A stretch of 64,000 nucleotides of DNA from Candidatus Eiseniibacteriota bacterium (GTDB lineage: Bacteria; Eisenbacteria; RBG-16-71-46; JACRLI01): NCBI GenBank assembly GCA_025351485.1, contig JANXVU010000147.1:6067-70066 (forward strand). The letters are read 5' to 3'. Made by a program: the position numbers and the translations under genes. Positions within the stretch are counted from its first letter, which is position 1. Each line of letters opens with the position of its first letter. The notes under the pieces are model-generated. The model searched no databases and was not told the origin of the DNA. It worked only from the letters and a program-made list of their open reading frames with translations. Of the stretch, positions 42,029 to 61,546 are shown one piece after another.

Positions 42029-42030
42029 GT

Positions 42031-43353: not shown

Positions 43354-43363
43354 GTCGTTCCCT

Positions 43364-44332: not shown

Positions 44333-44339
44333 TTCGGGT

Positions 44340-45092
44340 TCATCCTTTCAGGATCGAGGTCAGGGCCTCGGCCACGCCCTCTCCGTCGGCGGCCGGGGCG
44401 CGCATCACCCGGGTCGCTCCGGCGCGGGTGAGGCGGATCTCGGTCGTCGTGCCCTGGGCGATGCAGGGAATTCCCATCAGCGTGCGCCACGCCGCGCTGT
44501 CCATGTTCTGCCGCAGCGAATCCACGGCCGAGGGCGACGCAAACACCGCCGCCGCCAGCAAGTGCTTGTCCATGGCGGAAAGAAGCTGCGCCACGTTCAC
44601 GTGCACCCCGATGGTGCGATAGACTTCCAACTCTTCCACTTCCCACCCGGCATCTTCCAGCGCGTCGGGCAGCGTGTCGAGCGACAGATTGCCCCTCAGG
44701 AACAGCGCCCGCCGCGGCTCGGGGTGACGGGCCAGCAGCCATTCGGCCATCTCCAGCGCTCCGGTGCCGGGCGAGATTTCCACTTCTACTCCCAGGCGCG
44801 CGAGCGGCTCGGCGGTGGCCTTTCCAACCGCCACGCACACCGGCAGCACTTCCAGGTCCGGCCCGAGGGCCGCGGCCAGGGCCGCGGAAGCCCGCGCGCT
44901 GGTGAGCGCGATCAGGTCGGGGGGAGTGTCCGAGCGCAGCCTTTCCGAAAGTTTCGAGATCTCGCGGCCGGGCTCGAACCGCAGCACTTCCAGTTCGATC
45001 TGGGCGCAGCCGGCCGACTGGACCGCGTGCCGCTCCGGGCAGTCCTTGTCGAGGACCCGCGTGAACAGGACCTTCCGGCGTCCCTCGCTCAT
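44340..45092 (-). CDS. hemD: uroporphyrinogen-III synthase
   Basis: 250 aa with a HEM4 two-lobe pattern (VLFTRVL...ALTSARA...; ...LFLRGNLS...AAVFASPSAV...). Sits between hemB and hemC. Confidence 0.8.
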   Translation of the reverse strand: MSEGRRKVLFTRVLDKDCPERHAVQSAGCAQIELEVLRFEPGREISKLSERLRSDTPPDLIALTSARASAALAAALGPDLEVLPVCVAVGKATAEPLARLGVEVEISPGTGALEMAEWLLARHPEPRRALFLRGNLSLDTLPDALEDAGWEVEELEVYRTIGVHVNVAQLLSAMDKHLLAAAVFASPSAVDSLRQNMDSAAWRTLMGIPCIAQGTTTEIRLTRAGATRVMRAPAADGEGVAEALTSILKG

Positions 45093-45105
45093 CGGTCGCG
45101 CTTGC

Positions 45106-46008
45106 TCACAGGCTCGGCAGCAATTCCGCGGCGCCCTGCTCCAGCAGCGCCGTGGCCACCTGCCGGCCCAGCGCCTCGGGGTCGCGGGCGGTGCCGGCGC
45201 CCGAGGCGCGCAGCACCGTCTTGCCGTCCAGCGAGCAGGCGCATCCGGTCAGGAGCAGCCGGCCGTCTTCGATGCGGCCCCAGCCGCCGATCGGGAGCCG
45301 GCACCCGCCGCCGAGCCGGCGCAGAAGCGCTCTCTCGGCCAGCACCGCCGCCTTGGTGTCGGCGTGGCTGATCCCCACGGCCGCGGCGCACGTCTCGGTG
45401 TCGCCCGAGCGGGCCTCCAGCCCCAGCGCGCCCTGCGAGATGGCGGGCAGCATCACCTCGGGCTCCAGGACCTGCGTGATCCGGTCCGCGAGCCCGAGCC
45501 GCTTCAGCCCGGCCACGGCCAGCACGATGGCGTCGAACTCTCCCTCGTCCATCTTCCGGATGCGCGTGGGCACGTTGCCGCGGATCTCCACGCATACCAG
45601 GTCCGGGCGCGCCGCCAGCACCTGGGAACTTCGCCGCTGCGAGGAAGTGCCGACGCGGCCGCCCGCGGGGATTCGTTCCAACGTCAGGCCGCCGCGCGAG
45701 AGCCACGCATCCCGCGGATCCTCCCGCACCGGCACGCCCGCCAGGGTCAACCCCTCGGGCAAAATGGTGGGCAGATCCTTCAAAGAATGCACCGCCAGGT
45801 CGGCCACCTCGCCGAGCAGCGCCTGCTCCAGCTCGCGCGTGAACACCCCGAGCCCGCCGATTTCTGAAAGCGGGCGCACCCGGTCCTTGTCTCCCGAGGT
45901 GCGGATCTCCAGGAGCTCCACCCCCGGAACCCCGGCATCCCGGAGCAGACCTGCAATGTGGTTGGACTGTGCCAGCGCCAGCGCGCTAGCGCGCGTCGCG
46001 ATCTTCAT
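45106..46008 (-). CDS. hemC: hydroxymethylbilane synthase (porphobilinogen deaminase)
   Basis: MKIATRASALALAQSNHIAGLL...AVHSLKDLPT...RVGTSSQRRSSQ...IRGNVPTRIRK...GGCRLPIGG (dipyrromethane cofactor Cys). Confidence 0.9.
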   Translation of the reverse strand: MKIATRASALALAQSNHIAGLLRDAGVPGVELLEIRTSGDKDRVRPLSEIGGLGVFTRELEQALLGEVADLAVHSLKDLPTILPEGLTLAGVPVREDPRDAWLSRGGLTLERIPAGGRVGTSSQRRSSQVLAARPDLVCVEIRGNVPTRIRKMDEGEFDAIVLAVAGLKRLGLADRITQVLEPEVMLPAISQGALGLEARSGDTETCAAAVGISHADTKAAVLAERALLRRLGGGCRLPIGGWGRIEDGRLLLTGCACSLDGKTVLRASGAGTARDPEALGRQVATALLEQGAAELLPSL

Positions 46009-47284
46009 CGGTCTCCCCTGGCCCGGTGGGCTCTTTCTCGAGGTCGAACAGGTGCCGCACCGCGCCCGCCAGTTCCGGGCCTCGGCGCGGATCGTCCTTG
46101 GCCTGCATCAGGCGCAGGGTCGGTTCACGAAGTATATCGTTGATGATGCTCCGCGTGAGCAACTCCAGCTTTTCGCGGTCCTCCGCGCGGAACTTGCCCG
46201 CCACCGCCTCCACCCGCGCGTGGCGCAGCGATTCCAGCCGCGAGCGCATGTCGGCCAGCGTCGGCGTGACGGCAAGGCTGCGGTACCAGTCCAGGAACTT
46301 CGCGCTCTCTTCGGCGACGATCGCCTCGGCCCGCGGCGCCTCGCGGCGGCGGCGCTCCAGGTTGTCGTCCACGATGGACTTCACGGATTCGGTGGAATAC
46401 ACGAACACGTTGGAAATCTTGTTCACCGCGGGATCCACGTCGCGGGGCATGGCCAGGTCCACGATCACCATGCTGCGGCCGCGCCGTGCGCGGATCGCCT
46501 GCCGCACCATCTCCTCGCCGATCAAAGGCGCCGGGGACGAGGTCGCGCTGAACACCAGGTCGGCTTCGGGGAGCAACCTGGGCAGGTCCTCCAGCGAATG
46601 GGCGCGACCTCCGAGGCGCTGGGCCAGGACCCCGGCGCGCTCCAGGGTGCGGTTGGCCACCGTGAAATCCTTTACGCCGGCGTCGCGCAGGTAGTCTGCG
46701 GCCACGCGGCAGGTCTCGCCGGCGCCCACGATCAGCACCCGGGTCTCCTGGAGCGCGCCCAGCACCTTGGCGGCCAGGCCCACCGAGACCGAGGCCATGG
46801 AAATGGAGCCCTCGGTGAGCGAAGTTTCGGTGCGCACCCGGCGAGAGCAACGCACCGCGCTGTCCACCATGCGGCGCAGCACCGGCCCGCTCGCGCCCAT
46901 TCGCGCGGCGAGGTCGGCGGCGTTGCGGACCTGGCCGGCGATTTCCGTCTCCCCGATCACCATCGAGTCCAGCCCCGAGGTGACGCGAAAGAAGTGGGGC
47001 ACGGTGTCGGCGGTCTTCCAGACGTAGGTGAGTCCTTCGTGCTCCAGGATGTCCACGCCCTTGAGCCATCGGAAGATCGCGGCCAGCGCTTCCACCGGCG
47101 GCTGTTCCTCCGGGCTGCGCGCGTAGAACTCCATGCGGTTGCAGGTGGCCAGGATGAGGGTTTCCTTGTGGCCTTCCTCGCGCAGCCGGCTCAGGGCCTT
47201 CTCGGTTTCTTCCGGAGTGAGCGCCACGGCTTCGCGGATCTCGGCGGGCGAAGTCGTGTGGTTCAGTCCGATGCAGTGGATCAT
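45986..47284 (-). CDS. hemA: glutamyl-tRNA reductase
   Basis: ATG 47282-47284. MIHCIGLNHTTSPAEIRE...LILATCNRMEFY (catalytic Cys)...VLIVGAGETCRVAADYL. Its 3' end overlaps the hemC start by 23 nt. The 198-codon N-terminal extension of the listed ORF is an artefact. Confidence 0.9.
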   Translation of the reverse strand: MIHCIGLNHTTSPAEIREAVALTPEETEKALSRLREEGHKETLILATCNRMEFYARSPEEQPPVEALAAIFRWLKGVDILEHEGLTYVWKTADTVPHFFRVTSGLDSMVIGETEIAGQVRNAADLAARMGASGPVLRRMVDSAVRCSRRVRTETSLTEGSISMASVSVGLAAKVLGALQETRVLIVGAGETCRVAADYLRDAGVKDFTVANRTLERAGVLAQRLGGRAHSLEDLPRLLPEADLVFSATSSPAPLIGEEMVRQAIRARRGRSMVIVDLAMPRDVDPAVNKISNVFVYSTESVKSIVDDNLERRRREAPRAEAIVAEESAKFLDWYRSLAVTPTLADMRSRLESLRHARVEAVAGKFRAEDREKLELLTRSIINDILREPTLRLMQAKDDPRRGPELAGAVRHLFDLEKEPTGPGETDEDRDAR

Positions 47285-47289
47285 GCGGC

Positions 47290-48111
47290 CTACCTGAACT
47301 GGTGGAACGACCCGGCGAGGTGTCCCGGGATCAGGGTCGAGATCAGGAGCAGGCCGAAACCCGCGAGCGACAGGTACACCGTGAGCGTCCCGCCCCGGTG
47401 CAGCCGGTAGTGCACGAACAGCGCGCTGCCCGAGACCAGCCACACCAGCACGGTCAGGATCACCTTGGGGTCGGCGTAGTAGCCCGGAAACACGTGCGAG
47501 ATCCACACGATTCCCAGGATGATGGTGATGCCCAGCAGCGTGAATCCCGCGGCGGTGGACCGGATCATGGTGCGCGAGAGTTCGTCCAACGACGGCAGCC
47601 GGTGGTAGACCAGCGAGAAGCGGCCGAGCTTGAGTTCGTGGTAGAGCAGCAGGAACAGCACGCCGTAGACCGCGGCCAGGGCCAGCGCGCAGTAGCTGGC
47701 GATGGCGGCCAGCGTGTGCATGGCAAAAAGCGGAGAGCGCAGGACCGCCGAAGGATGCGGCTCGGTTCCGAAGCCCAGCGCCCCGGGCAGCATGAGCAGG
47801 GCCACCACCGCGACCACGAACATTCCGATCATGGGCGTGCCGCGGCGGATCTCGATCCAGAAGTAGCAGATCGCCAGGCACAGCGCGACCATGCCCAGGG
47901 CCTCGCCCGCGCTGGTGATGGGAAGCATTCCCAGCTTGGTGGCCCGAAGCATCAGGGCGTTGGCGTGCAACAGGATGGCAGCCATCAGGAGCGGCTGCGC
48001 GGCGCGGCCCAGGCCCGGGGCGCGGCCCCAGAACACGGCGGCGTAGGAGGCGGCGGTCAGGGCGTACATTCCGAGCACCAGGAGCAGGATCAGGGACACG
48101 AGGGCTTCCAT
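47290..48111 (-). CDS. CcsA-family (cytochrome c assembly / HemX-like) polytopic membrane protein
   Basis: ATG 48109-48111. 8 TM segments with the CcsA-like Trp-rich region ...ICYFWIEIRRG... and conserved His-containing helices. Sits directly upstream of hemA, as in B. subtilis hemAXCDBL. Confidence 0.7.
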   Translation of the reverse strand: MEALVSLILLLVLGMYALTAASYAAVFWGRAPGLGRAAQPLLMAAILLHANALMLRATKLGMLPITSAGEALGMVALCLAICYFWIEIRRGTPMIGMFVVAVVALLMLPGALGFGTEPHPSAVLRSPLFAMHTLAAIASYCALALAAVYGVLFLLLYHELKLGRFSLVYHRLPSLDELSRTMIRSTAAGFTLLGITIILGIVWISHVFPGYYADPKVILTVLVWLVSGSALFVHYRLHRGGTLTVYLSLAGFGLLLISTLIPGHLAGSFHQFR

Positions 48112-48227
48112 GGATACGGGGTGGACTCCGCCCGGCCGGGGATCTCCCGGTCCGGTAACCCTAAGAATATAATGGTGGAAGGCGATTCTGACAAACGGGG
48201 AGTACCGGGGGGCCGGCCTTGCCGGAC

Positions 48228-49490
48228 CTAGCCCACCTTGCGGGTCGGCACGATCACGTTGGCCAGCAGCATCCCGGCGGCCAGGGCGGCCGTCATCAGC
48301 AGCATGCGGAAGGCGGTTTCCACGCCCGGCACCACCTCGTGACCCATGAGCGAAAGCAGGCTCCGAAAACCCATGCTTCCCGGCACCAATAGAATTAGCC
48401 CCGGCACGAGGGTGACCGTGGGCGGCCGCCGGAAAACGCGGCTGTAAAGATTGCTCGCCACCCCCAGAGCCAGCGAGCCCACGAACACTCCCAACCGGTG
48501 CCCCAGCAGCACTCCTCCCAGGCGCGCCCCGCCGAACCCCGCCAGGCCGGCGGCCAGCACCCACGGGATGTCCCGCGGCGCCGCGCGAAAGAGCACGCTG
48601 AACGCCAGCGGTCCCACCACGAGGCCCACCGCCGTGGTCCATGGAGGCAGCGCAGCCACCAGGGCCGGCCCGGGAACTCCAAAGACCGATGCCGCCACCG
48701 TGTTTCCGACCGCCACACCAAAGGCGATCGCCAGGAACAGCATGAACGCTCCGGCCAGGCGCGTCGTGCCCGACACCAGGTGGCGGGAAGAGAGTTCCAT
48801 CATGGCCAGCGTCAGGGTGAGGCCCGGCAGCACCACCAGCAGGCTGGCCAGGGTGACGTTGGAAGTGTCCAGTCCGTGCAGGCTACGCGCGGCCCCGGCC
48901 GAAAGAAACGCCGCCACGAAGGCCGCCGCCGGCTCGAACACCCGGCCGGTGCCGGGGCTTCGCGTGAGCAGCAGCGCCAGCAGGCCGGTCAGGAGGCCGA
49001 TCACCCCGGCCACGGCCGCTTCGCGCGCCCCCCCGCCCAGCAGCACCGCGCCCGCACAGGCCGACACCGCCGAGGCCAGCAGCGTGAGAGCCGAACGGTA
49101 GCGCCGGGGAGCCGCCACGATTTCCTGGATCCGGGCCAGTCCTTCGGCGGGATTGCCGCCGCCGTGCAGGACCTTCTGGGCCACGCCTTCCAGGTCGGCC
49201 AGTTTTTCCAGGTTCACTTCGCCGGGCTCGGCGCGCAGCAGGAACGACTTCTGTTCCGGGAGCGGCCCGAAGGCCGCAAAGATGGCCGTGGGAGTGGAAA
49301 AGAACTGTCCCACCACCCCCAGCCGGAGGGCCGCGTGCTCCAGGACTTCTTCAAGGCGCTGGGAAGAGTAACCGTAGCGATGGAGGGCGCGGGCGAGCTG
49401 CAGGATGAAGTGGATAGGCTCGCGGTCGGGCGTGGCGGGAGATTCGGAGGCGGCGGATACGGCGGAACCTGGAGCAGGCCTTTCGGCCAT
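48228..49490 (-). CDS. ThrE-family putative threonine/serine exporter (DUF1212 + DUF3815)
   Basis: Cytoplasmic N-domain IHFILQLARALHRYGYSSQRLEEVLEHAALRLG..., then 10 Gly/Ala-rich TM helices typical of ThrE. Confidence 0.75.
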   Translation of the reverse strand: MAERPAPGSAVSAASESPATPDREPIHFILQLARALHRYGYSSQRLEEVLEHAALRLGVVGQFFSTPTAIFAAFGPLPEQKSFLLRAEPGEVNLEKLADLEGVAQKVLHGGGNPAEGLARIQEIVAAPRRYRSALTLLASAVSACAGAVLLGGGAREAAVAGVIGLLTGLLALLLTRSPGTGRVFEPAAAFVAAFLSAGAARSLHGLDTSNVTLASLLVVLPGLTLTLAMMELSSRHLVSGTTRLAGAFMLFLAIAFGVAVGNTVAASVFGVPGPALVAALPPWTTAVGLVVGPLAFSVLFRAAPRDIPWVLAAGLAGFGGARLGGVLLGHRLGVFVGSLALGVASNLYSRVFRRPPTVTLVPGLILLVPGSMGFRSLLSLMGHEVVPGVETAFRMLLMTAALAAGMLLANVIVPTRKVG

Positions 49491-49759
49491 CAGTCCACGT
49501 CCACCCGGTCCACCACACCGACCACCATGGTGCGCACCGGGCCCTGCTTGATGCCCAGGATCTGGGAGGCGGCGTTGCCCTCGTCCACCACCAGGACCTT
49601 TTCGCCTTCGCCGGCGGACACGGTGTCGAGCGCGATCACCGGCGGGCCCTTGGGCTGATCCTTCTCATCCACGAGCTGCACGTACAGCAGCTTGTGGCAG
49701 CAGAGGGGATCGATCTTGACAGTGGCGACCACTTCGCCCACCACGATGCCGAGCTTCAT
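49490..49759 (-). CDS. bacterial microcompartment vertex protein (BMC-P; EutN/CcmL/PduN family)
   Basis: 89 aa MKLGIVVGEVVATVKIDPLCCHKLLYVQLVDEKDQ...VIALDTVSAGEGEKVLVVDEGNAASQILGIKQGPVRTMVVGVVDRVDVD aligns along its full length with the EutN/PduN consensus (M.lg.VvG.VvaT.K...L.G.KLL.V...AlDtVgAG.GE.VLV..G.aA.....PvdamvVGvvDrVd). Its ATG directly follows the dNK stop. Confidence 0.8.
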   Translation of the reverse strand: MKLGIVVGEVVATVKIDPLCCHKLLYVQLVDEKDQPKGPPVIALDTVSAGEGEKVLVVDEGNAASQILGIKQGPVRTMVVGVVDRVDVD

Positions 49760-50437
49760 CTAGCCCGCCGTGCCGCTGCGCGCGGGCTGGGCCGGCTGCG
49801 GATCGCGCTTGACCGTGCCGGTCTCCCGGCACAGGACGTCCAGGAGCTCTTCGACCTCCGCCGAGCCGTCCAGGTCCTTGAGCGTGTTGGTGTCGATCCG
49901 GACCACGCGCGTGGCCGACGCCATTTCCGTGGCCCAGCGCTCGTAGCTCTCTTCGAGGCCCGCCAGGTACTCGCGGGAAATGGTGCGCTCGCAATCCCGG
50001 CCGCGCTGGGCGATGCGCCCGAGCAGCGTGTCGGGCGAGGCGGCCAGAAAGACAATCATGTCGGGGTGGCGGAACTCCTGTAGAAAGCGCTCGTACTCGG
50101 CGCGATAGTAGGCGTGCTCCTCGGCGGTCATCATGCCCATGTCGTGCAGCGCCCGCTCGAACACCTCGGCGTCTTCGTAAATGGTCCGGTCCTGGATGAA
50201 ATGACGTTCGGAGCTCATCATGCGGCGCTGGAACTTGACGCGGTGCTCCAGGAAGTAGAGCTGCGACTTGAGCGCCCACTTCTTCATGTCGGCGTAGAAG
50301 TCGGCCAGGTGCGGATTTTCCACGGAGGGCTCGAAATACGCGATCCAGTCCAGGCGCGCATGGATCAAGCGCGTGAGATAGGTCTTACCGACCCCGATGT
50401 TGCCGGCGATGGCGAGGAAGAACGGTCGCGATTCCAT
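49760..50437 (-). CDS. deoxynucleoside kinase (dGK/dCK/TK2 family)
   Basis: ATG 50435-50437. FLAIAGNIGVGKTYLTRL (P-loop), FEPSVENP..., ERHFIQDRTIYEDAEVF (ERS/DR motif), LQEFRHPDMIVFLAASPDTLLGRIAQRGRDCE (LID). Confidence 0.85.
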   Translation of the reverse strand: MESRPFFLAIAGNIGVGKTYLTRLIHARLDWIAYFEPSVENPHLADFYADMKKWALKSQLYFLEHRVKFQRRMMSSERHFIQDRTIYEDAEVFERALHDMGMMTAEEHAYYRAEYERFLQEFRHPDMIVFLAASPDTLLGRIAQRGRDCERTISREYLAGLEESYERWATEMASATRVVRIDTNTLKDLDGSAEVEELLDVLCRETGTVKRDPQPAQPARSGTAG

Positions 50438-51482: not shown

Positions 51483-52151
51483 ATGCCCAGCCCAACCGTG
51501 GAAAACTACCTGAAAGCGTTGTTCCAGCTCGCCGTTCCGGAGCGGGGGGTCAGCACGCGCGAGCTGGCCGGCAGGTTGCTGGTCAAGGACGCCTCGGTCA
51601 CCCATATGCTCAAGCGGCTGTCCGGGACCGGGATGGTGAGCTACGAGCCGTACCGGGGGGCGACCCTTACACCGGAGGGACGGCAGGCGGCCACGGCGGT
51701 CCTGCGGCGCCACCGAATATTGGAATTGTTCCTTCACCGGATGTGCCGGCTGTCGCTGGACAAGGTGCACGCCGAGGCGGAGCGGCTGGAGCACGCCGCC
51801 TCCGAGGACTTCGTGGACGCCCTGGACCGGCTGATGGACTTTCCCACCCTGGATCCGCATGGAGATCCCATCCCCGACCGCGAAGGCCGGCTGCGCGGGA
51901 TCGACTCCCGCCCGCTGACCGATATCCCACCGGGCGCACGGGTGGTGCTGGTGCGCGTGGAAGATGCCCGCCCGGAGGCCCTCACTTACCTGGTCAGCGA
52001 GGGACTGGTCCCGGGCCGCAAAGTCACGGTGGCGCGCCGGCTGGACTTCGATGGATCGGTGGAGCTCCAGTTGGGCCGCCGCCGCCTCATGCTGGCACGC
52101 GAGCTGGCCGAGGGCATCCATGTGACCCCCGACGAGGGGAGCGCGGAATGA
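51483..52151 (+). CDS. mntR: DtxR/MntR-family metal-dependent transcriptional repressor with a C-terminal FeoA/SH3-like domain
   Basis: MPSPTVENYLKALFQLAVPERGVSTRELAGRLLVKDASVTHMLKRL (wHTH); the metal-site helices ...RRHRILELFL...HAEAERLEHAASEDF...; C-terminal ...GARVVLVRVED... (FeoA-like). Confidence 0.85.
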   Translation: MPSPTVENYLKALFQLAVPERGVSTRELAGRLLVKDASVTHMLKRLSGTGMVSYEPYRGATLTPEGRQAATAVLRRHRILELFLHRMCRLSLDKVHAEAERLEHAASEDFVDALDRLMDFPTLDPHGDPIPDREGRLRGIDSRPLTDIPPGARVVLVRVEDARPEALTYLVSEGLVPGRKVTVARRLDFDGSVELQLGRRRLMLARELAEGIHVTPDEGSAE

Positions 52152-53566
52152 GCTCTCCCAACCCGAAGCAGCCCGAGAGGTCCGCCCCGCCCGGGCGTCC
52201 TTCCACGCCGTCCCTTTCGGAGGTTTTCCGAAGCGTCCCGGTCAGCGGACGCGGCTGGCTCCGACGGCTGTTCGCCTTTGCGGGGCCGGGCTATCTGGTG
52301 AGCGTGGGCTACATGGACCCGGGCAACTGGGGCACCGACATCGCCGGCGGCGCGCAGTTCGGCTATGCGCTGCTGTGGGTGATCCTGCTTTCCAATCTCA
52401 TGGCGATGCTGCTGCAGACCCTGTGCGTGCGACTGGGCCTCGCGACCGGAAGAGACCTGGCGCAGGCGTGCCGGGACTACTACAAGAGGCCGGTGGCCGT
52501 GGCGCTGTGGCTGCTGTGCGAGATCGCCATCGTGGCCTGCGACCTGGCCGAGGTGGTGGGTTCGGCCGTGGCGCTCAACCTGCTGTTCCATATCCCGCTG
52601 CTGTGGGGCGTGCTCATCACCGGGCTGGACGTGCTGCTGCTGCTGGGCGCCATGAGTTTCGGATTCCGAAAGATCGAGGCCGTGGTGGTCACGCTGGTGT
52701 TCACGGTGGGGATCTGCTTCGCCATGCAGACCTTCCTGGCCCACCCGGCGTGGCCGCAGGTGGCCGCGGGCTTCGTGCCGAGCATTCCGGGGCCGCAGGC
52801 CTTCGTGATCGCGCTCGGGATCCTGGGAGCGACGGTCATGCCGCACAATCTGTACCTGCATTCGGCGCTGGTGCAGACCCGCGCGAGCCGGCAGACGCCC
52901 GCGGGTATCACCGAAGCCATCAAGTTCAACACCATCGACACCATCGTGGCGCTGGGCGCGGCGTTCTTCGTGAACGCGGCCATCCTGGTGGTGGCATCCG
53001 CGGTGTTCCACACTCGCGGATACACCCACGTCTCGGAGCTGCAGGAGGCGCACAAACTGCTCACCCCGCTGCTGGGCGCCCCGGTGGCGGCCACGGCGTT
53101 CGCGGTGGCGCTGCTGGCCTCGGGGCAGTCGTCCACCATCACCGGAACGCTGGCCGGGCAGATCGTGATGGAAGGCTTTCTCAACATCCGGATCCGGCCG
53201 TGGCTGCGGAGGATCATCACCCGGAGCCTGGCGATCATTCCGGCGATGGTGCTGTTCTCCTTCACCGGCGGCAGGGACACGGTGGCCCTGCTGGTCATGT
53301 CCCAGGTGGTGCTGTCGCTGCAACTCTCCTTCGCGATCTTTCCGCTGATGATGTTCACCAGCGACCGGCGGCTCATGGGCGAGTTCGTGAACCCGCCGGC
53401 GCTCAAGATCGCGGGCTATGCGACGTGCCTGCTGATCGCCTCGCTGAATGCCTACTACTTGTACACCAGCATCGGGCCGCTGTGGCTGGGCGTGGTGGCC
53501 GCGGCGATGATTGGTTTTGCGGTCTGGGTCCGGTATTTCTACCGGGAGGGCCCGGCGGCCGCCTGA
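52148..53566 (+). CDS. mntH: NRAMP-family divalent metal (Mn2+/Fe2+) transporter
   Basis: ATG overlaps the mntR stop (ATGA). ...FAFAGPGYLVSVGYMDPGNWGTDIAGGAQFGYALLWVILLSNLMAMLLQ... (DPGN motif) and MPHNLYLHSAL (consensus transport motif). Confidence 0.9.
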   Translation: MSSPNPKQPERSAPPGRPSTPSLSEVFRSVPVSGRGWLRRLFAFAGPGYLVSVGYMDPGNWGTDIAGGAQFGYALLWVILLSNLMAMLLQTLCVRLGLATGRDLAQACRDYYKRPVAVALWLLCEIAIVACDLAEVVGSAVALNLLFHIPLLWGVLITGLDVLLLLGAMSFGFRKIEAVVVTLVFTVGICFAMQTFLAHPAWPQVAAGFVPSIPGPQAFVIALGILGATVMPHNLYLHSALVQTRASRQTPAGITEAIKFNTIDTIVALGAAFFVNAAILVVASAVFHTRGYTHVSELQEAHKLLTPLLGAPVAATAFAVALLASGQSSTITGTLAGQIVMEGFLNIRIRPWLRRIITRSLAIIPAMVLFSFTGGRDTVALLVMSQVVLSLQLSFAIFPLMMFTSDRRLMGEFVNPPALKIAGYATCLLIASLNAYYLYTSIGPLWLGVVAAAMIGFAVWVRYFYREGPAAA

Positions 53567-53668: not shown

Positions 53669-54310
53669 ATGGAACGCAAGGATCTGGAAGGTCTGGTTCG
53701 GCAGTTGGTGACGGACGTGGTGGCCCGCGTGGATGCGGCCGCCAAGGCTCCGGTGGCCCCGCCGTGCCATGAAACCGAGCCGCTTTCGCCGAAAAAGTCC
53801 GCGGCTCCGGCCGGGGCCTCGCCCGCCGCCGCGGGACCCGCGCCGCTCTCCAAGGAGCTTCGCGTGGTGATCGGCTCCGACCATGGCGGCTTTGCGCTGA
53901 AAGAGGAGCTGGTCTCGCACCTGCATGCGCTGGGCTACGCGGTGATCGACGTGGGCACGCACGGCACCGAGGCGGTGGACTATCCTGACTTTGCCAAGGC
54001 GGTGGCCCAGCGGGTCGCGCGCGGCGAATGCGACCGTGGGATCGTCATCGACGGGGCCGGGATCGGCTCCGGGATGGCGTGCAACAAGGTGGCCGGTGTT
54101 CGCGCCGCGGTGTGTCACGACCTGAAGAGCGTGCTGAACTCGCGCGACCACAACGACGCCAACGTGCTTTCCCTGGGCTCCGGCGTGGTGAGCCCCGAAC
54201 TGGCCCGCGAAATGGTGGCCACCTGGCTCAAGACCCCCTTTGGCGCCGGCCGCCACTCCCGCCGGATCGCCAAGATCAACGAACTCGACCGCGACAGGAC
54301 CCGCGCATGA
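53669..54310 (+). CDS. rpiB: ribose-5-phosphate isomerase B (RpiB/LacAB family) with a 62-aa N-terminal extension
   Basis: Core [19 protein letters not shown]...[30 protein letters not shown]...[10 protein letters not shown] is RpiB. The extension [21 protein letters not shown] + [40 protein letters not shown] is a predicted amphipathic helix followed by an Ala/Pro-rich linker. Confidence 0.85.
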
Positions 54311-55215
54311 CCGACCCCAAGCTGATCGAAGCCATCGTCCAGGAAGTGCTGCGCCGCCTGCCGTCCTCCGCGGGAGCCAGCACCTGCGGCGACTGCACCT
54401 CGTGCGGGCACTGCGCGGTGAAGAAGCCCGAGATGATCAAGAGCCTCGTGGACCAGGGCGCCTGCCGCATCGGCTGCTGCCCCGGCGTGGGATCGGGCAT
54501 GCCGCCCACGCTGGCCTGCCTGATCGACCACACCCTGCTCAAGCCCGACGCCCCGCGCTCCGACGTGGAAAAGCTGTGCACGGAAGCGCTCGAGTACAAC
54601 TTTGCCTCGGTGTGCATCAACCCCTCGTGGGTCTCCCTGTGCCGCGACAAGCTGCGCGGCAGCGAGGTCAAAGTTTGCACCGTGATTGGTTTCCCGCTGG
54701 GGGCCAACACCACCCAGACCAAGGCGTTCGAAACCCGGCGGGCCATCCTGGACGGGGCCACCGAGGTGGATATGGTGATCAACGTCGGGCGGCTCAAGAG
54801 CGGCGACAACGACTACGTGGAAAAGGACATTCGCGAAGTGGTGGAGCAGGCCCGCCCCAACGTGCTGACCAAGGTGATCCTCGAGACCGCCCTGCTCAGC
54901 AAGGAAGAGATCGTGCGCGCTTCGCTGCTCGCGCGTTCCGCCGGGGCCAACTTCGTGAAAACCTCCACCGGGTTCGCCTCCGGCGGGGCCACCGCCGAGG
55001 ACGTGCGCCTGATGCGCCAGGCCGTGGGCGACCGCATGGGCGTGAAAGCTTCCGGCGGCATCCGAGACCGCAAAGTGGCCGAGGAAATGGTGGAGGCCGG
55101 CGCAACCCGCATCGGCGCCTCCGCCAGCGTGAAGATCGTGACCGAGGCGGCGGCCGCGGCCGGCGCGCCCAAGGCGGTCACCGAGAGCGCGGCCTCGGCA
55201 AAGTCGCAGTACTAG
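54307..55215 (+). CDS. deoC: deoxyribose-phosphate aldolase (DERA) with a 78-aa N-terminal extension
   Basis: ATG overlaps the rpiB stop (ATGA). Core [14 protein letters not shown]...CINPSWV...[12 protein letters not shown]...[10 protein letters not shown]...[10 protein letters not shown] (Schiff-base Lys)...VKASGGIRD is DeoC. The extension [18 protein letters not shown] + [50 protein letters not shown] is a predicted amphipathic helix followed by a Cys-rich segment. Confidence 0.85.
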
Positions 55216-55281: not shown

Positions 55282-57417
55282 ATGCCCGTCCGCAAGATTG
55301 CCGCCCGCGCCACTCTTCTGACGCTCCTCCTGGGGCTGCTTCCGCTTATCAATTCCTGCGGCGACTCCACCACCCAACCCAATCCCGCTGTGTGCGAGAT
55401 CACCCCGGCGTCGCTCGACTTCTCGATCGTCCTGGCCGGGAGTAGCTCCGACCGGCAGATCACCGTCCGGAACACCGGCGGCTCCCGGTTGGAGGGCGCA
55501 GCGCGGGTGACCAGCGCGGTGTTCCACCTGGTGGGCGATACAACGTTTTCCCTGGATGCCGGACGCAGCGCGGTGCTCACGTTGCGCTATTCACCCGCAG
55601 CGGCGGGATCCGATTCGTGCGTGGTGAGCTTCACGGCGGCGGGCTGCGGGAGCCTCCGCGCGCGGGGCACGGGCACGGTGGTGGCGCAGACGTCCTGCCG
55701 GGTGCGGCCGGCGCAGATTGACTTCGGCCCGGTGCCTACCACCGGCTTCTCCGATCGCACCTTTACATTGGCCAACACCGGCAACGTCCGGATCACCGGC
55801 ATGGTCCAGGCCAATTGTGCATGGTTCCAGGTGGTCTCGCCGCCTTCCGGGTACGACCTCGCGCCCGGGGACTCGGCCACGTTCACCGTGCGCTTCCGTC
55901 CCGGATCGGTCGGTGCGCAGTCGTGCAGCATTTCCACGGGACAGAATGGTTGCGGCTCCGTGCTGGTCTCCGGAACGGGCAGCAGCAATTCCGGTGCGGT
56001 GTGCCAGTTCGATCCTGCCTCCCTCGATTTCGGGCGGGTCACGGGCGGGAGCCAGGACCGCACCTTCACTTTGGCCAACAATTCCGAACTGCCGATCACC
56101 GGGAGCATCCAACTGAGCTGCCCGGATTTCTCGCTGCTCGGAGCCGGCTCGGTTTCGCTGGCCGCACACCAGTCGGCATCGTATACGGTGAGATTTCACC
56201 CCGCGGTCTATGGAACCGAGACGTGCATGCTATCCGCGACCATCGCGGGCTGCGGAACCCTGCCCATGAGCGGAAGCTATGGCGGCCTGAACAGCTGCGA
56301 CGTGGCTCCGACAGATCTCGACTACGGGCTCCTGACCACGGGCCAGTCCCGGGAACTCACTTTCCGGATCCTGAATACCAGCGTGCAGGTGGTGGCAGGC
56401 GTGGTGTCCTCGCCCGAAGCGGGGTTCACCGTCGAAAACCCGACCTACAGCCTTGCCCCGGGCGCCCAGGTCACCATCCGGGTCACGGCGCATGCGCTCG
56501 GCGCCGGAACTCGTACCGCCCAACTCGACCTGGGCACGACCGCTTGCTTCGGCCCCCGGGCCAGGGTGCGGGTCTCGGAACCGCTGGCGCCGGGCTACCT
56601 GAAATGGGGTTCGCTGGGAAGCGCGGACGGCCAGTTCAGCAGCCCCTCGGGTGTGGCGGTGGGAGTGGACGGATCCGTCTATGTGACGGACGAGCACAAT
56701 GACCGGGTGCAGAAGTTCGGCGCAGACGGAGTTTTCCAGGCGTCGTTCACCGGATTCCATGGTCCTGCGGGTATCGCCGCCGATAAGCTGGGCGATATCT
56801 TCGTGAAAGATTCCGGGACCGGGATGATCCTCCGGATGAATTCCAGCGGCGCTGTGCTTGGCTCCTGGCAAGTCGGGATCTACAGCACGGGTCTCGCCTC
56901 GGACGACTCGGGAAACGTCTACGTGGCCATCGATGCAGCGCCCGCTGGGGTCTACAAGTACACCCGGGAAGGCGTACTGACGGGCCGTCTCACCGGCCAG
57001 ACGGGGGCCGGCCTGGGAGTGGATGGGGCCGGCGACGTTTACATCGGAGCCGCGGAGGCGGTGTACAGGTTGCATGCGGGCAGCGTGATCGCCACCTGGC
57101 CGAGCCCCCTGGGCCCGAACCTGCCATACAATCAATCGAGCCTGGGAGGGCTGGCCCTGGACGGGGCCGGGAACGTGTTGGTGACCCGCTACACCAACGA
57201 CACGGGAGTGGCGGCCGAAGTGGAAGTGCTCGAATCCCACGGAATCCTGGTCCACCGCTTCGGCGTGCAGGGCAGCGAGGACGGGGCCTTCTACTACCCC
57301 ACCGGCATCGCCGTCTCCCCCTCCGGTTACGTCTACGTGGTGGACCGCGCCAACCACCGGATCCAGCGCTTCGGGCCGGGGCAGTACTCCAAAGGCAGGT
57401 CAACTCTCCATCCTTGA
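55282..57417 (+). CDS. lipoprotein with five tandem Ig-like (ASH / choice-of-anchor-D-type) domains followed by an NHL-repeat beta-propeller
   Basis: Signal + lipobox LLPLINSC. Five ~75-aa repeats share C..I.P..LDFG.V..G.S.DRTFTL.N.G...ITG......C.F........Y.LAPG.S..F.VRF.P...G...C.....GCG. C-terminal NHL repeats (GSADGQFSSPSGVAVGVDGSVYVTDEHNDRVQKF..., ...YVVDRANHRIQRF). Confidence 0.75.
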   Translation: MPVRKIAARATLLTLLLGLLPLINSCGDSTTQPNPAVCEITPASLDFSIVLAGSSSDRQITVRNTGGSRLEGAARVTSAVFHLVGDTTFSLDAGRSAVLTLRYSPAAAGSDSCVVSFTAAGCGSLRARGTGTVVAQTSCRVRPAQIDFGPVPTTGFSDRTFTLANTGNVRITGMVQANCAWFQVVSPPSGYDLAPGDSATFTVRFRPGSVGAQSCSISTGQNGCGSVLVSGTGSSNSGAVCQFDPASLDFGRVTGGSQDRTFTLANNSELPITGSIQLSCPDFSLLGAGSVSLAAHQSASYTVRFHPAVYGTETCMLSATIAGCGTLPMSGSYGGLNSCDVAPTDLDYGLLTTGQSRELTFRILNTSVQVVAGVVSSPEAGFTVENPTYSLAPGAQVTIRVTAHALGAGTRTAQLDLGTTACFGPRARVRVSEPLAPGYLKWGSLGSADGQFSSPSGVAVGVDGSVYVTDEHNDRVQKFGADGVFQASFTGFHGPAGIAADKLGDIFVKDSGTGMILRMNSSGAVLGSWQVGIYSTGLASDDSGNVYVAIDAAPAGVYKYTREGVLTGRLTGQTGAGLGVDGAGDVYIGAAEAVYRLHAGSVIATWPSPLGPNLPYNQSSLGGLALDGAGNVLVTRYTNDTGVAAEVEVLESHGILVHRFGVQGSEDGAFYYPTGIAVSPSGYVYVVDRANHRIQRFGPGQYSKGRSTLHP

Positions 57418-57699
57418 GGTCTTTGCGGCCTCTGAAATATCCCCATTGAGCCGCCGCCCCCGCTTGGGCTAAAGTGGCTGGACTCGAAACCCACGAGAGT
57501 GCGCGACCGGAAACCCACCCTCCCCGGATGCCCGCACCGGCAGCAGCGCGGCCCCTTGAGAGCCCGCCAGGCGTGATTCGTCACGAAGAATTCATCCGGA
57601 CGGTGGCCGTTTGTCGCTTGCCTGCCCTGTATCGTTGGGGCAGACTCGCGCCTCACCCATGACTGCCAGCGTCCTTTACCGGGGCCCACAAACGCACGC

Positions 57700-60558
57700 A
57701 TGATCCTGCGCCGCTCGACTCACCTCGCCCTCGCCCTGATCGTGTTCTTGATCACCTCCCTGGCCACCGCCCATGCGGACCAGCGAGGCCTTCTTTCCGG
57801 AAGGATCCTGGACCAGGACGGCCACGCCATCCCTTTTGCCAGCGTGGGCATCCCGGCGGCCAAGACCGGGGGCCTCAGCGATGCCGAGGGCAACTACCGC
57901 GTTTCAGGCCTCACGGCCGGCACCTACCAGGTCAAGGTTAACTATATTGGTTATGAACCGACCACGGACGATGTGGTCATCGAAGAGGGTAAAACCACCC
58001 AGAAGAATTTCAAGCTCAAACAAATTATCGTCAAAAGAGAGAAGGAAGTAGTCGTTACCGCCGACCGGCCGCTGGTCGAAGTCCGCTCCTCCTCCACCGT
58101 CCGCTCCGTCACCAGCGAAGACATCAAGAAGCTGGCCGTCACCAACCTGGAGCAGGTGCTGGAGCAGCAGACCGGCACGGCCAAGACCAACGACGAGATC
58201 CACGTGCGTGGAGGTCGTTCGGACGAAGTGAGTTACGTGGTGGACGGGGCTAAGACCCGCGACCTGGTCTCGGGCAAGGGCACCGCCGGCAAGATCTCCT
58301 CGGGATCGGTCGCCGAAGTCGGCGTGATCACCGGGGGCTTCGACGCCGAGTTCGGGCAGGCGCTCTCGGGCGTGGTGCAGGTGCGGCTCAAGGAAGGCTC
58401 GTCGAAGTACCACGGCAGCTTCGAGTACCGCACCGACAAGGTCGGTTCCCTGGTGGACTCGTCCAGCTCGTTCAACACCGACGGGGCCAGCTTCCAGGTG
58501 GACGGGCCGGAGCCGCTGACCCGCCTGCTGGGCTGGAACGGGGATTCCAAGCTGACCTTCCTGGCCAGCCTGAACACCGAGTTCTCCGACACTTACCTGA
58601 AGAACATCCACAGCAACGGCAACGACTTCAAGCTCACGCCCGGCTACCAGGACTCGTTCCTGGGCAGCCTGCTCCGCTACGGCCACTTCTTTTCGCCGCG
58701 GCAGGACAACGGCTGGCAGTGCCTGTACAAGCTGGCCTACAAGGCCGCCACCAGCGACAAGTATTCGATCACTTACAATAAGTCGCTGCAGATCGACCAG
58801 GGCTTTGGCCGCCACCTGGTGAGCGACATCGCCGACGACCGCAACACCTACCCCTACCGCTGGACCAACCGCCTGGATCACGCGGCCATCGACACCGAGG
58901 ACAACACCACGATCTCCGGCACCTGGACCCACGTGTTCGGAACCAGCCTGGTCCAGCAGGTGCAGCTGGCCCGCAACGTGAGCGTGCTGCACGTAGGGGT
59001 GCAGGGCAAGAACGGCGAAGAGACCCCGTGGCGCGAGTACGTGGCCCCCAACGACGACATCTGGAAGGTGCTGGGCGCCGGGACCGCCGATACGCTGCGG
59101 GCCTACGACCTGTTCTACGACACCGGCGACGACTCCATCTTCCAGGACCGCTACAGCCGCGAGACCACGCTTTCCTACAGCTTGAACAGCGCCTCGCGTC
59201 ACCACGACATCAAGTTCGGCACCGAGCTCAATCTGCAATCGGCGCAGTTCATCGACATCGAGAACCCGTGGGACTACGACCCCGACACCCTGGGCAGCAA
59301 GCACGACATCTTCACCGTGCACCCGGCCACGGGCGACCTGTACCTGCGCGACCGCGTGGACTACGAGGGTTTCGTGGCCGACATCGGCGCCCGCTGGGAC
59401 CTGTACTTCCCGGGCAAGGAAGCCGAAGCCGCGGTCCTGGACACCAACAACCTGAACATCACCAGGACCGTGCGGGACGGATTCCAGAACGAAACCTTCA
59501 GCCTGATGGGCCGGCGCGTGAAGGCCCATCTTTCGCCGCGCATCTCGGTGTCGCACCCGATCACCGAGCGGGACAACTTCTATTTCAACTACGGCGAATT
59601 CACGCAGTGGCCGGCCTACTACTACATCTATTCCAAGATCGGCTCGATCTCGAGCGAGAACTTTCCGCAGATCGGCAACGTGAATCTGGACCCGACGGTC
59701 TCCATCCAGTTCGAGCTGGGCGGCCGGCACCAGATCTCGGATTTCCTCGGGGCCAACATCGCGTTCTACCAGAAGGACACCTACGGCTACCCGACGCTGG
59801 CCAGCTCGCAGCGCATCCAGGGCGCCAGCAACGCGCCGTTCTCGATCTACCTGAACAGCGACTTTTCGCGCTCCCGCGGAATCGAGCTGGAGCTGGAGAA
59901 GCGCCGCTCGAAGTATTTCTCGTACAAGGGCACCTACGAATACTCCACCATCCGCTCCAAGTCGTCCTCGCCCAACCAGCTGAAGATCATCCAGGAACTG
60001 GGCGGCGACACGCGCGAGGCGCGGGTGGGCGAGGAGATCGCCTACTGGCATCGCCCGCACCAGGGCCGGTTGCGGCTCTCCTGGAGCACCGGGGACGAAA
60101 CCGGCAAGAAGGCGTTCCTGGGCCTGATCGATCTGCCCAGCCGCTTCAGCATGTCGTGGAACTTCAGTCTGCGCTCGGGCCGCGCCTACACGCCGGGCCG
60201 GGTGCGGTTGACGTACGACTCCAAGGACTCGTCGGTGGCGGTTTCTTCGGAAGCCATCGGCGCTTCCAATTCGGCCAACGCGCCGGCGGAGTTCAACTGC
60301 GACCTGAAGCTGGCCAAGTCTTTCAGCATTTTCGGCCGCTCCCTGGATGCGAACCTGACCGCCACCAATCTTTTCAACACCGGCCGCTCGAAGTTCATCG
60401 ACCCGACCACCGGCAAGGCGTACACGGACGGCCAGGGGCTGTGGGGCTACTACGAGAAGACGGCGATCCAGAAGTACCGGCACACCCAGATCGCATCGAA
60501 TCCGTCGGTGCTGGGACAGGGAAGGAACATCCGATTGAGCGTGGGCTATGACTGGTAG
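57700..60558 (+). CDS. TonB-dependent outer-membrane receptor with an N-terminal carboxypeptidase-regulatory-like domain (SusC/RagA-like architecture)
   Basis: Signal peptide; GRILDQDGHAIPFASVGIPAAKTGGLSDAEGNYRVSGLTAGTYQVKVNYIGYEP (CarbopepD_reg_2); plug (EVVVTADRPLVEVRSSSTVRSVTSEDI...EIHVRGGRSDE...YVVDG); ~22-strand barrel ending ...GRNIRLSVGYDW. Confidence 0.8.
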   Translation: MILRRSTHLALALIVFLITSLATAHADQRGLLSGRILDQDGHAIPFASVGIPAAKTGGLSDAEGNYRVSGLTAGTYQVKVNYIGYEPTTDDVVIEEGKTTQKNFKLKQIIVKREKEVVVTADRPLVEVRSSSTVRSVTSEDIKKLAVTNLEQVLEQQTGTAKTNDEIHVRGGRSDEVSYVVDGAKTRDLVSGKGTAGKISSGSVAEVGVITGGFDAEFGQALSGVVQVRLKEGSSKYHGSFEYRTDKVGSLVDSSSSFNTDGASFQVDGPEPLTRLLGWNGDSKLTFLASLNTEFSDTYLKNIHSNGNDFKLTPGYQDSFLGSLLRYGHFFSPRQDNGWQCLYKLAYKAATSDKYSITYNKSLQIDQGFGRHLVSDIADDRNTYPYRWTNRLDHAAIDTEDNTTISGTWTHVFGTSLVQQVQLARNVSVLHVGVQGKNGEETPWREYVAPNDDIWKVLGAGTADTLRAYDLFYDTGDDSIFQDRYSRETTLSYSLNSASRHHDIKFGTELNLQSAQFIDIENPWDYDPDTLGSKHDIFTVHPATGDLYLRDRVDYEGFVADIGARWDLYFPGKEAEAAVLDTNNLNITRTVRDGFQNETFSLMGRRVKAHLSPRISVSHPITERDNFYFNYGEFTQWPAYYYIYSKIGSISSENFPQIGNVNLDPTVSIQFELGGRHQISDFLGANIAFYQKDTYGYPTLASSQRIQGASNAPFSIYLNSDFSRSRGIELELEKRRSKYFSYKGTYEYSTIRSKSSSPNQLKIIQELGGDTREARVGEEIAYWHRPHQGRLRLSWSTGDETGKKAFLGLIDLPSRFSMSWNFSLRSGRAYTPGRVRLTYDSKDSSVAVSSEAIGASNSANAPAEFNCDLKLAKSFSIFGRSLDANLTATNLFNTGRSKFIDPTTGKAYTDGQGLWGYYEKTAIQKYRHTQIASNPSVLGQGRNIRLSVGYDW

Positions 60559-61546
60559 CGTGAAGAAGATGGCCCTGCTGGCCGCCCTGCTCGCCCTTCC
60601 GTGCGCCGCGCATGCCCAGGATCAGCAGTTGGGCGGACAGCGCCGCGGCACGGCCTCGCTGGAGTTCTTGAAGATCGGCGTGGGCGCCCGGGCCGAGGCC
60701 ATGGGCGAGGCGTTCGTCTCGGTGGCCAACGACCCCAGCGCCATGTACTGGAACCCCGCGGGCGTGGCCTCGCTGCAGCGCCGTTCGGCCCAGATTTCCA
60801 CGACCCAGTATCCGGCCGACATCCGGTACAACCACCTCTCGGTGGTGTTCCCTTCCGAGGCGCTCGACGGCTCGATCGGGATCCAGATTGGCGGCCTGGC
60901 CTCCGACATGCCGGAGACGGACGAGTTCCATCCCTACGGCACCGGCCGCACCTTCACGTTCACGGACTTCGTGATGGGCGCCACCTACGCGCGGCGCTTC
61001 ACGGACAAGCTGCTGATCGGCTTTGGAATGAAGTTCGCGCGCGAGGACTACGGCTCGCAGCTCGACGCCCCGGTCACGCAGGCGCTGCTCTTCGACATCG
61101 GCTCGATCTACTACATCGGCTTCCGCAGCCTGCGCGTGGGCATGTCGCTCACCAATTTCGGCGGCGACGTGGGCCCACGGGGCTCGTTCGTCTCCTCCAA
61201 CGGCAGCGGCACCCGCTCCTACGACACTTTCACCGCGCCCACGACGTTCCGCTACGGCGTCGGCTTCGAGCCGCTGGAACGCGAGAACCTCCGCGTGACC
61301 GCGGCCCTGGAGGCCACCCAGCCTTCCGACAACCGGATCGAGTACCGGGTGGGCACCGAGGTCCTGTTCCAGGGCCACCTGGCGCTCCGCTCGGGATACC
61401 AGATCCGCAGCGACGCGTTCAAGTTCTCGGCCGGCGCCGGATTCAAGGGCGAGATCAGCTCGCTGGCGGGCGAAGTGGACTACGCCTACACCGACGGCGG
61501 CCCGCTGGGGCACGTGAACCGGCTTTCGCTGCAGGTGGCGTTCTGA
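60548..61546 (+). CDS. PorV/PorQ-family outer-membrane beta-barrel protein (T9SS PorV-like; FadL-like fold)
   Basis: Signal peptide ALLAALLALPCAAHAQ; family signature GTASLEFLKIGVGARAEAMGEAFVSVANDPSAMYWNPAGVA; C-terminal ...NRLSLQVAF. ATG 60548 overlaps the TBDT stop by 11 nt (alternative ATG 60569). Confidence 0.7.
   Translation: MTGSVKKMALLAALLALPCAAHAQDQQLGGQRRGTASLEFLKIGVGARAEAMGEAFVSVANDPSAMYWNPAGVASLQRRSAQISTTQYPADIRYNHLSVVFPSEALDGSIGIQIGGLASDMPETDEFHPYGTGRTFTFTDFVMGATYARRFTDKLLIGFGMKFAREDYGSQLDAPVTQALLFDIGSIYYIGFRSLRVGMSLTNFGGDVGPRGSFVSSNGSGTRSYDTFTAPTTFRYGVGFEPLERENLRVTAALEATQPSDNRIEYRVGTEVLFQGHLALRSGYQIRSDAFKFSAGAGFKGEISSLAGEVDYAYTDGGPLGHVNRLSLQVAF

Follow-up and report, generated by a model that had tools for sequence, protein, structure and literature searches.

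A conserved cysteine-rich, ferredoxin-like module, predicted to bind metal, in the N-terminal extension of a microcompartment-type deoxyribose-phosphate aldolase

Few bacterial microcompartments (BMCs) are as widespread as those for sugar phosphate utilization (SPU), which have been reported from 26 phyla (PMC8217296). In 2024, Dwyer et al. (Commun Biol) described an N-terminal extension of about 70 amino acids (aa) on all SPU deoxyribose-phosphate aldolases (DERAs), and treated the whole of it as an encapsulation peptide made of a helix and two low-confidence strands (PMC11585597). The full-length SPU DERA was insoluble in E. coli, and this signature SPU enzyme has so far been studied only after removal of its N-terminal extension (PMC11585597). 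Here we analyse the extension of a DERA encoded by a deoC gene in a 64-kb stretch of DNA from a Candidatus Eiseniibacteriota bacterium (64,000 nucleotides in all, hereafter the window), in which an earlier note, made from the letters alone, had pointed to a Cys-rich segment. The conserved part of this extension looks like half of a ferredoxin motif followed by a copy of the last helix and strand of the DERA barrel ('GAxRIG'). The extension as such is already published, and its cysteines, its ferredoxin-like motif and its internal copy of strand beta-8 are undiscussed in the searchable literature; no searchable paper (for the key paper, its main text) linked a DERA extension to cysteines, Fe-S, zinc or a copy of beta-8.

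The window protein has much in common with the published SPU DERAs. It belongs to the same enzyme family, and its extension agrees in position and length and begins with an amphipathic helix that is followed by a less well predicted part. In both cases the extension is absent from non-compartment DERAs and is often missed by start calls, start-codon misannotation of SPU DERAs having been described by Dwyer et al. (PMC11585597). In both cases, too, the partner ribose-5-phosphate isomerase (RPI) shows a change of the catalytic Cys to Asp, which is reported for all SPU RPIs (PMC11585597); the SPU-type RPI is reported to have negligible ribose-5-phosphate isomerase activity. Of the traits of an SPU-type DERA, the window protein has the extension of about 70 aa with an amphipathic helix and the adjacent RPI (PF02502) with Asp in place of Cys, and lacks, within the 64-kb window, a locus with BMC-H/T shell proteins and an aldehyde dehydrogenase. 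A difference from the published cases is that no shell locus surrounds the gene pair, which has a single BMC-P gene in its vicinity. The published description also differs in that its main text names no conserved Cys, metal, ferredoxin-like motif or beta-8 copy.

The deoC gene (54307..55215, +) was identified from its open reading frame and translation as encoding a 302-aa DERA that ends in Tyr302 and carries a 68-aa N-terminal extension. Its ATG (54307) overlaps the stop codon of the upstream rpiB gene (ATGA, 4 nt shared). The curated deoC equivalog TIGR00126 matches aa 69-278 with 292 bits (cut-off 117.3) and Pfam DeoC matches aa 70-271 with 77 bits (cut-off 23.8). These domain models begin only at residue 69-70, and aa 1-68 belong to no curated family. 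The TIM-barrel core (aa 69-278; 54511..55140, +), delimited by TIGR00126 and Pfam, bears the catalytic residues D155, K189 and K218, which are invariant across a 79-sequence alignment (A1) and which we infer, from their motifs and from PMC11585597, to be the equivalents of E. coli D102, K167 and K201.

The 36-residue string to which the earlier note drew attention corresponds to residues 27-62 of this protein. Translation confirms its count of seven Cys (at 27, 30, 33, 36, 53, 57 and 58) and a single His (H35), and the segment does, as was claimed, separate the DERA barrel from an amphipathic helix of encapsulation type. The spacing of the second Cys group had been read correctly as CxxxCC, whereas that of the first, given as CxxCxxCxxxC, was off by one residue and is CxxCxxCxxC. 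Cys makes up 1.08% of the 9,927 residues in the 23 likely proteins of the window; at that frequency, a run of 36 residues with at least seven Cys would arise by chance with a probability of about 1e-7 at any one position, or about 1e-3 when all positions are counted. The other likely proteins have at most four Cys in any 36-residue stretch.

The Cys-rich segment is real and translated, because GC at third codon positions is high, synonymous changes are in excess, and a related gene encodes the module in frame upstream of its annotated start. Specifically, GC by codon position in deoC codons 1-64 is 0.59/0.56/0.94, as coding sequence has it in this genome of 67% GC. In comparison with a relative at 96% identity (L008, a Logan contig), codons 1-68 differ by 10 synonymous and 4 non-synonymous changes and the codons of the DERA core by 39 and 9. 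In a contig of Cand. Eisenbacteria (L005; JACRLI010000004, 9806..10000), the NCBI product has 236 aa and the module lies in frame upstream of that start, reading VADSKLVETIVAEVLRRIG...CSDCSACGQC...GASRIGCGPG. A start codon downstream of the segment would have undone the claim of the earlier note, and the codon statistics show that the start is not downstream. Late starts have shortened other NCBI DERA entries (244 versus 297 aa; 223 versus 283 aa), and the public start calls of P0008, P0281, P0284, P0285 and P0289 drop the N-terminal module (236, 244, 223 and 278 versus about 283-303 aa). We therefore flag a systematic start-codon error in the public annotation of microcompartment-type DERA genes.

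Residues 1-68 comprise three modules: an encapsulation helix with its linker, a Cys loop with the helix that follows it (aa 27-50), and a pseudo-strand (aa 51-60). The encapsulation-type amphipathic helix (aa 4-18; 54316..54360, +) is predicted by AlphaFold2 (AF2) at residues 4-17 and is kept in relatives; its hydrophobic moment of 1.84 exceeds the mean of shuffled sequences (0.91) and is reached by 2.7% of shuffles. The linker (aa 19-26; 54361..54384, +) varies in length in the alignment, and the predicted local distance difference test (pLDDT) of residues 19-28 is below 50. Helix and linker together fit the definition of an encapsulation peptide, namely a short amphipathic helix and a poorly conserved linker. 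Next come the four-Cys loop (aa 27-36; 54385..54414, +), whose C27, C30, C33 and C36 are probable metal ligands on the grounds of conservation and of matches to PsaC and Fer4, and a helix (aa 37-50; 54415..54456, +) that AF2 predicts at residues 36-39 and 41-49 and that aligns to PsaC, with K40-P41 occupying the Cys-Pro position of the ferredoxin motif. The last is a pseudo-beta-8 element (aa 51-60; 54457..54486, +), which bears C53, C57 and C58 and is assigned from hhalign and conservation. Because the Cys loop and GAxRIG are conserved and stand at a fixed distance from the barrel, they are not linker.

AF2 was run on the 79-sequence alignment, and the module was also modelled alone. The full model has a confident barrel and a confident helix at 4-17, pLDDT of 65-74 at residues 31-70, and GACRIG as coil with no strand. 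In the module-only model, the helix after the loop reaches a pLDDT of about 80. Both models give the Cys loop itself moderate or low confidence only.

To follow the module among relatives we searched with the full-length protein; the 83-aa N-terminus used alone gave one candidate, and none scored. Nearly all of the best 120 full-length homologues have 278-325 aa or about 460-500 aa, and the extension is present in them. Close relatives of both sizes (about 280-310 aa and about 470 aa) share the helix, the Cys loop and GAxRIG; their named sources are Cand. Eisenbacteria, Blastocatellia, Calditrichota and a Pseudomonadota metagenome-assembled genome. A scan of the genome collection returned four distant loci only and no close relative of the window organism. 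Ordinary DERAs (L002-L004, with 47-58% core identity) have only 10-13 residues ahead of IDHT, and stop codons precede their starts, in agreement with the claim of the earlier note that such enzymes have nothing comparable.

We counted Cys in 115 unique modules and took column frequencies from a 57-sequence alignment (A2). The loop has four Cys in 94 modules, five in 4 and three in 17; 15 of the three-Cys modules have one to three His nearby, and the remaining two are truncated N-terminally. Four spacings are the most frequent: Cx2Cx2Cx2C (36 modules), Cx7Cx2Cx2C (26), Cx5Cx2Cx2C (12) and Cx6Cx3C with His-His (11). One named protein of this last clade is from Blastocatellia. In A2, C30, C36, G51 and R54 are invariant (57/57), and C33 (48/57), G34 (51/57), P41 (42/57), V44 (45/57), A52 (53/57) and G60 (54/57) are kept in most members. 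The resulting consensus for the loop and helix is C-x(2-8)-C-x2-C-G-x-C-x3-[K/C]-P, or, in a variant form, C-x(2-8)-C-x2-C-G-x-C-[VA]-x-K-x-P-x2-V. An upstream Cys that floats in position thus joins C-x2-C-G-x-C in the alignments to make a set of four candidate ligands, and the set formed by C27, C30, C33 and C36 is kept across phyla.

The same counts do not support the view that all seven Cys belong to one motif. C53, C57 and C58 are confined to the closest relatives, with no Cys at these positions in 99 of the 115 modules, and even within the closest clade the tail varies (CRIGCC, SRIGCC, SRIGCR, SRIGCG). We therefore rejected a single seven-Cys site. By comparison of the sequences, these three Cys are lineage-specific replacements of Ala or Ser in the pseudo-strand, outside the conserved site.

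A profile of the module was compared with 1.84 billion cluster representatives, which gave 211 hits at E <= 1e-3, and the sequences of the best 150 were read. Most of these 150 are DERAs, whether complete, in fragments or as frameshifted pieces. Polyferredoxins make up some of the rest, matching the first half of the profile only, many times over, and a small number of ankyrin-like or other repeat proteins match the helix region only; among these best 150 of 211 hits, polyferredoxins are the sole non-DERA matches to the Cys-loop half. Fusion of the module to other enzymes was rejected, since every non-repeat hit in the best 150 of 211 is a DERA, a fragment or a frameshifted piece. On this evidence from sequence, the whole module is restricted to DERAs and ordinary DERAs are without it. 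Two relatives, P0265 and P0223, have the encapsulation helix and helix-GAxR[IV]G and lack the Cys loop, which indicates that the two parts of the module are separable. One 107-aa protein (P0167) joins the Cys module straight to the last quarter of the DERA barrel (…GAARVGAKIEDIVLMRRVVG…GASRIGVSPS), and may have arisen by internal deletion or by chimeric assembly.

The second half of the module was compared with the barrel of the same protein. By hhalign, aa 38-61 align to core aa 252-275 with a probability of 91% (P 9e-7), and none of 200 column shuffles of the comparison reaches the real score (best 17.2 versus real 37.1). In the PDB, this half matches solved DERAs in the region of their C-terminal strand (6d33 residues 195-217, E 0.003; 3ngj; 1mzh), and also designed TIM barrels. 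The stretch aligns to the last alpha/beta unit of the barrel ('GATRIGAS'), with the Gly and Arg invariant. It differs from that unit in sitting outside the barrel, at the N-terminus, without the helix that follows, and in being predicted as coil by AF2; in the clade of the window protein it also has Cys where the barrel has Ala or Ser.

As for the first half, a profile search of the PDB gave as its top hit PsaC, the photosystem I subunit with 2x[4Fe-4S] (E 6e-4), aligned to the module string 'gdCsaCGhCvekrpeaVkslv'. In a lenient Pfam scan of the 57 modules, the only families that recurred were of Fer4 type: Fer4 itself in 7 of 57 (E at least 0.0047) and other Fer4 types in one to five members, the best match to any Fer4-clan model having E 3.8e-4. 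The module shares with the 4Fe-4S ferredoxin motif the loop and helix C-x2-C-G-x-C-x3-(C)-P-x2-V, and PsaC and polyferredoxins are its best non-DERA matches. Unlike them, it has a single motif instead of two and an additional Cys 2-8 residues upstream, its fourth Cys is usually Lys, Ala, Arg or Asn, and no ferredoxin fold was recovered for it. In the window protein the motif is C30-x2-C33-x2-C36-x3-K40-P41, which departs from CxxCxxCxxxCP in having Lys for the fourth Cys, and the Pfam gathering threshold for Fer4 is not reached. Some relatives, for example P0109, retain CxxCxxCxxxCP in full.

From these comparisons we predict that C27, C30, C33 and C36 probably bind one metal centre, the extra upstream Cys supplying the fourth ligand in place of the one usually replaced (Lys40) in the ferredoxin CxxCxxCxxxCP. 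The suggestion of a metal or Fe-S binding knuckle was thus a reasonable one, in that the conserved four-Cys set resembles 4Fe-4S motifs; it does not extend to all seven Cys. As to the metal, [4Fe-4S] is the likeliest and is somewhat favoured over Zn(II), a tentative prediction made because the module shares with the ferredoxin signature its Gly, its Pro and the next hydrophobic residue, and because some relatives have the full motif.

Zn(II), the main alternative, is a serious rival, because the spacing varies, some variants are of Cys3His type and the scores per motif are weak. Under this explanation, four Cys (or three and a His) would hold a single Zn(II) in a purely structural knuckle, a small adaptor domain with no redox role, and the likeness to ferredoxin would come merely from a common Cys spacing. 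The Cys3His-type sets include CxLHHDECFVKCP in Blastocatellia, which are aerobes, and one of the 57 modules matches zf-CXXC (E 0.0031), which the window module does not. CXXC domains bind Zn through a CxxCxxC triplet and a distal Cys. CXXC zinc fingers and the C-x6-C-x2-C-x5-C [4Fe-4S] loop of endonuclease III are compact four-ligand sites and, like the module, have their four ligands within 10-17 residues; such sites hold Zn or a cubane. Unlike these, the module has no detectable homology to either, no glycosylase-loop hits were seen, and it has one Cys unit only, where a CXXC-type zinc finger is defined by two CGxCxxC(x)nC units. In addition, the Gly after the middle Cys (51/57), the Pro (42/57) and x-x-V reproduce CxxCGxCxxxCPxxV beyond the Cys alone, Fer4 families recur in the Pfam scan where zinc-finger families occur once, and complete CxxCxxCxxxCP motifs are kept in some relatives. 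We consider a purely structural zinc knuckle somewhat unlikely on balance.

The longer relatives bear on what the module might do. In these proteins of about 470 aa the order is encapsulation helix, linker, a domain of about 150 aa, helical linker, Cys loop, helix-GAxRIG and DERA core. For the additional domain, a match was obtained to an HFCD-type flavoprotein decarboxylase (6jls_A, E 4e-5), with weaker ones to EpiD and Dfp; Pfam Flavoprotein was matched in one fusion member (E 2e-4). Such relatives are many (L006 10001..11440 and proteins P0009-P0118, about 470 aa). The fusions have the N-terminal encapsulation helix, Cys loop, helix-GAxRIG and DERA core in common with the window protein, and differ from it in the flavoprotein-like domain between helix and Cys loop, which the window protein lacks. 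In the fusions the Cys loop is always beside the barrel, and the encapsulation helix is up to about 200 aa away. Because the loop stays by the barrel while the helix is some 200 residues off, we read the Cys loop as a subdomain of the enzyme and not as part of the tether.

Our overall reading, which we hold tentatively, is that the module is a metal-stabilised adaptor subdomain on a DERA that is microcompartment cargo. The GAxRIG unit, always a fixed short distance before the barrel, may pack the knuckle onto the DERA body or onto a partner subunit, so that the knuckle would be a rigid, metal-dependent adaptor and not part of a floppy encapsulation tether. Its likely job would be to set the geometry or the oligomeric contacts that gather DERA into the microcompartment core, and dependence on metal (possibly on oxygen) could make packaging conditional on the state of the cell. 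An adaptor or packaging role is suggested by sequence with low to moderate confidence.

Several observations weigh against this reading. DERA without the extension is soluble, dimeric and active, and still binds RPI (PMC11585597); its activity implies that the module is not needed for catalysis and makes a catalytic role unlikely. The Cys loop is dispensable in some lineages, as its loss from P0265 and P0223 indicates. AF2 gives the module a pLDDT of only 46-74 and assigns no defined fold to the Cys-loop region. Even at E 10, Pfam yields no family for the module of the window protein, and single-motif ferredoxin matches are weak (i-Evalue 0.2-1.3), such scores being inflated by Cys-rich composition. 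Finally, the spacing varies (x2/x2/x2; x4-8/x2/x2; x2/x5/x3; x6/x3 with His-His), which fits Zn knuckles equally well.

Sensitivity to redox state or oxygen, or an electron relay, is less likely in our judgement than a structural adaptor. It is unlikely that a redox-active [4Fe-4S] on a ferredoxin-derived knuckle couples the redox or oxygen state of the compartment to the packaging or activity of DERA, as sensor or as relay partner. To our knowledge, an Fe-S-bearing DERA would be the first such class I aldolase. Also improbable is a relay proper, in which a [4Fe-4S] on DERA would move electrons with a PduS-like NADH dehydrogenase or with the fused flavoprotein-like domain, and so link NADH recycling to the signature enzyme. 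The relatives of about 470 aa, with their HFCD-type domain directly before the Cys loop, argue for this, as does the locus of one fusion, which also encodes a PduS-like Complex1_51K/Fer4 protein. PduS homologues occur in all SPU subtypes except SPU6 and have been proposed to recycle NAD+ (PMC11585597), and 'Flav+DERA' fusions have been described for compartments of Hodarchaeales (Asgard) in connection with NADH build-up (PMC12747264). However, DERA chemistry is not redox chemistry, the window protein has no flavoprotein domain, and some lineages are without the Cys loop. The window gave no BMC-H by tblastn, and no PduS-like Pfam hit was found among 20 of its proteins scanned. The earlier note had offered a redox or metal sensor or a shell-docking element; neither role is supported.

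A metal-free thiol/disulfide switch, in which CxxC pairs would oxidise and change the conformation of the tether, seems improbable. The loop is indeed built of overlapping CxxC motifs, and in the clade of the window protein additional Cys gather nearby at 53, 57, 58 and 71, but in the three-Cys lineages His stands beside the remaining Cys, as would fit metal ligands and not disulfides, and the conserved Gly and Pro are typical of cluster-binding loops. An artefact, with the true start at a downstream Met (M42 or M65) and the Cys stretch untranslated or a chance product of GC-rich DNA, is very improbable: automated annotations of relatives do begin downstream (P0008, 236 aa; P0281, 244 aa; P0284/5, 223 aa), but the same annotation error is described by Dwyer et al. 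(PMC11585597), and the in-frame module 5' of the annotated start in the Eisenbacteria contig, the third-position GC of 0.94, the synonymous excess in codons 1-68, the amino-acid sequence kept across phyla and a chance probability of about 1e-3 for the window, before conservation is counted, rule out a downstream start or a chance Cys run.

Were DERA to carry a redox-active [4Fe-4S] cluster, its failure to assemble might be one cause of the insolubility seen when the full-length enzyme is expressed aerobically in E. coli. If a conserved part of the extension is a metal-binding subdomain, anaerobic expression with Fe-S assembly factors, or added Zn, would be a route to soluble full-length protein. 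A metal-binding subdomain in place of a floppy tag would also change how cargo recruitment is modelled, and loading of the organelle may then depend on iron, oxygen or redox state. The flavoprotein-like fusions in bacterial relatives, which have been reported too for Asgard (PMC12747264), make the redox question directly testable.

We examined the neighbourhood of deoC for the rest of an SPU compartment. The upstream rpiB gene (53669..54310, +) encodes an SPU-type RPI with Pfam LacAB_rpiB at aa 66-203, an encapsulation-like amphipathic helix at aa 4-21 and a Pro/Ala-rich linker of about 40 aa; the position of the catalytic Cys is Asp128, and His161 is retained. A gene for a BMC-P (EutN/CcmL) vertex protein (49490..49759, -; Pfam EutN_CcmL 4.7e-23) lies 4.5 kb upstream of deoC and is the only shell gene in the window. 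It is abutted by a deoxynucleoside kinase gene (49760..50437, -; Pfam dNK 5.6e-45). We rejected the idea that this kinase is a cargo protein bearing an encapsulation peptide, because from its likely start (MESRPFF...) it has no extension. The pairing of dNK and EutN and the overall layout recur in the Cand. Eisenbacteria contig L005 and in the Logan contig L008.

By tblastn, the 64-kb window has no BMC-H (PduA query) and no PduP-type aldehyde dehydrogenase, and one BMC-P only. A full microcompartment locus in the window is thus not borne out, and the idea of a complete SPU locus here was dropped. A DERA relative of about 479 aa does lie in a full SPU locus, with PTAC, aldehyde dehydrogenase, a PduS-like protein, three BMC-domain proteins, three BMC-P, TIM, RpiB and a class II aldolase. 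Because the window RpiB is of SPU type, a DERA relative belongs to a full SPU locus and the window lacks BMC-H, the rpiB-deoC pair is best read, from its gene content, as SPU-type cargo encoded away from the shell genes. The main shell locus is possibly elsewhere in the genome.

Several further genes surround the pair. The interval that separates dNK-EutN from rpiB-deoC encodes a metal repressor of DtxR/MntR type, which has a FeoA domain, and an Nramp transporter (51483..53566, +); their placement is conserved in the two syntenic contigs. A haem/tetrapyrrole cluster (39597..47881, -) encodes a HemN-like radical SAM protein, uroporphyrinogen decarboxylase, a class-III aminotransferase that we take to be HemL-like, ALA dehydratase, HemD, porphobilinogen deaminase and glutamyl-tRNA reductase, and is followed by a gene for a cytochrome c assembly protein (47290..48642, -). 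Downstream of deoC, the region 55282..61546 (+) encodes a 711-aa protein with Ig-like (HYDIN/ASH-type) and NHL repeats, a 952-aa TonB-dependent-receptor-like protein (CarboxypepD_reg and Plug) and a PorV/UPF0164-like outer-membrane protein.

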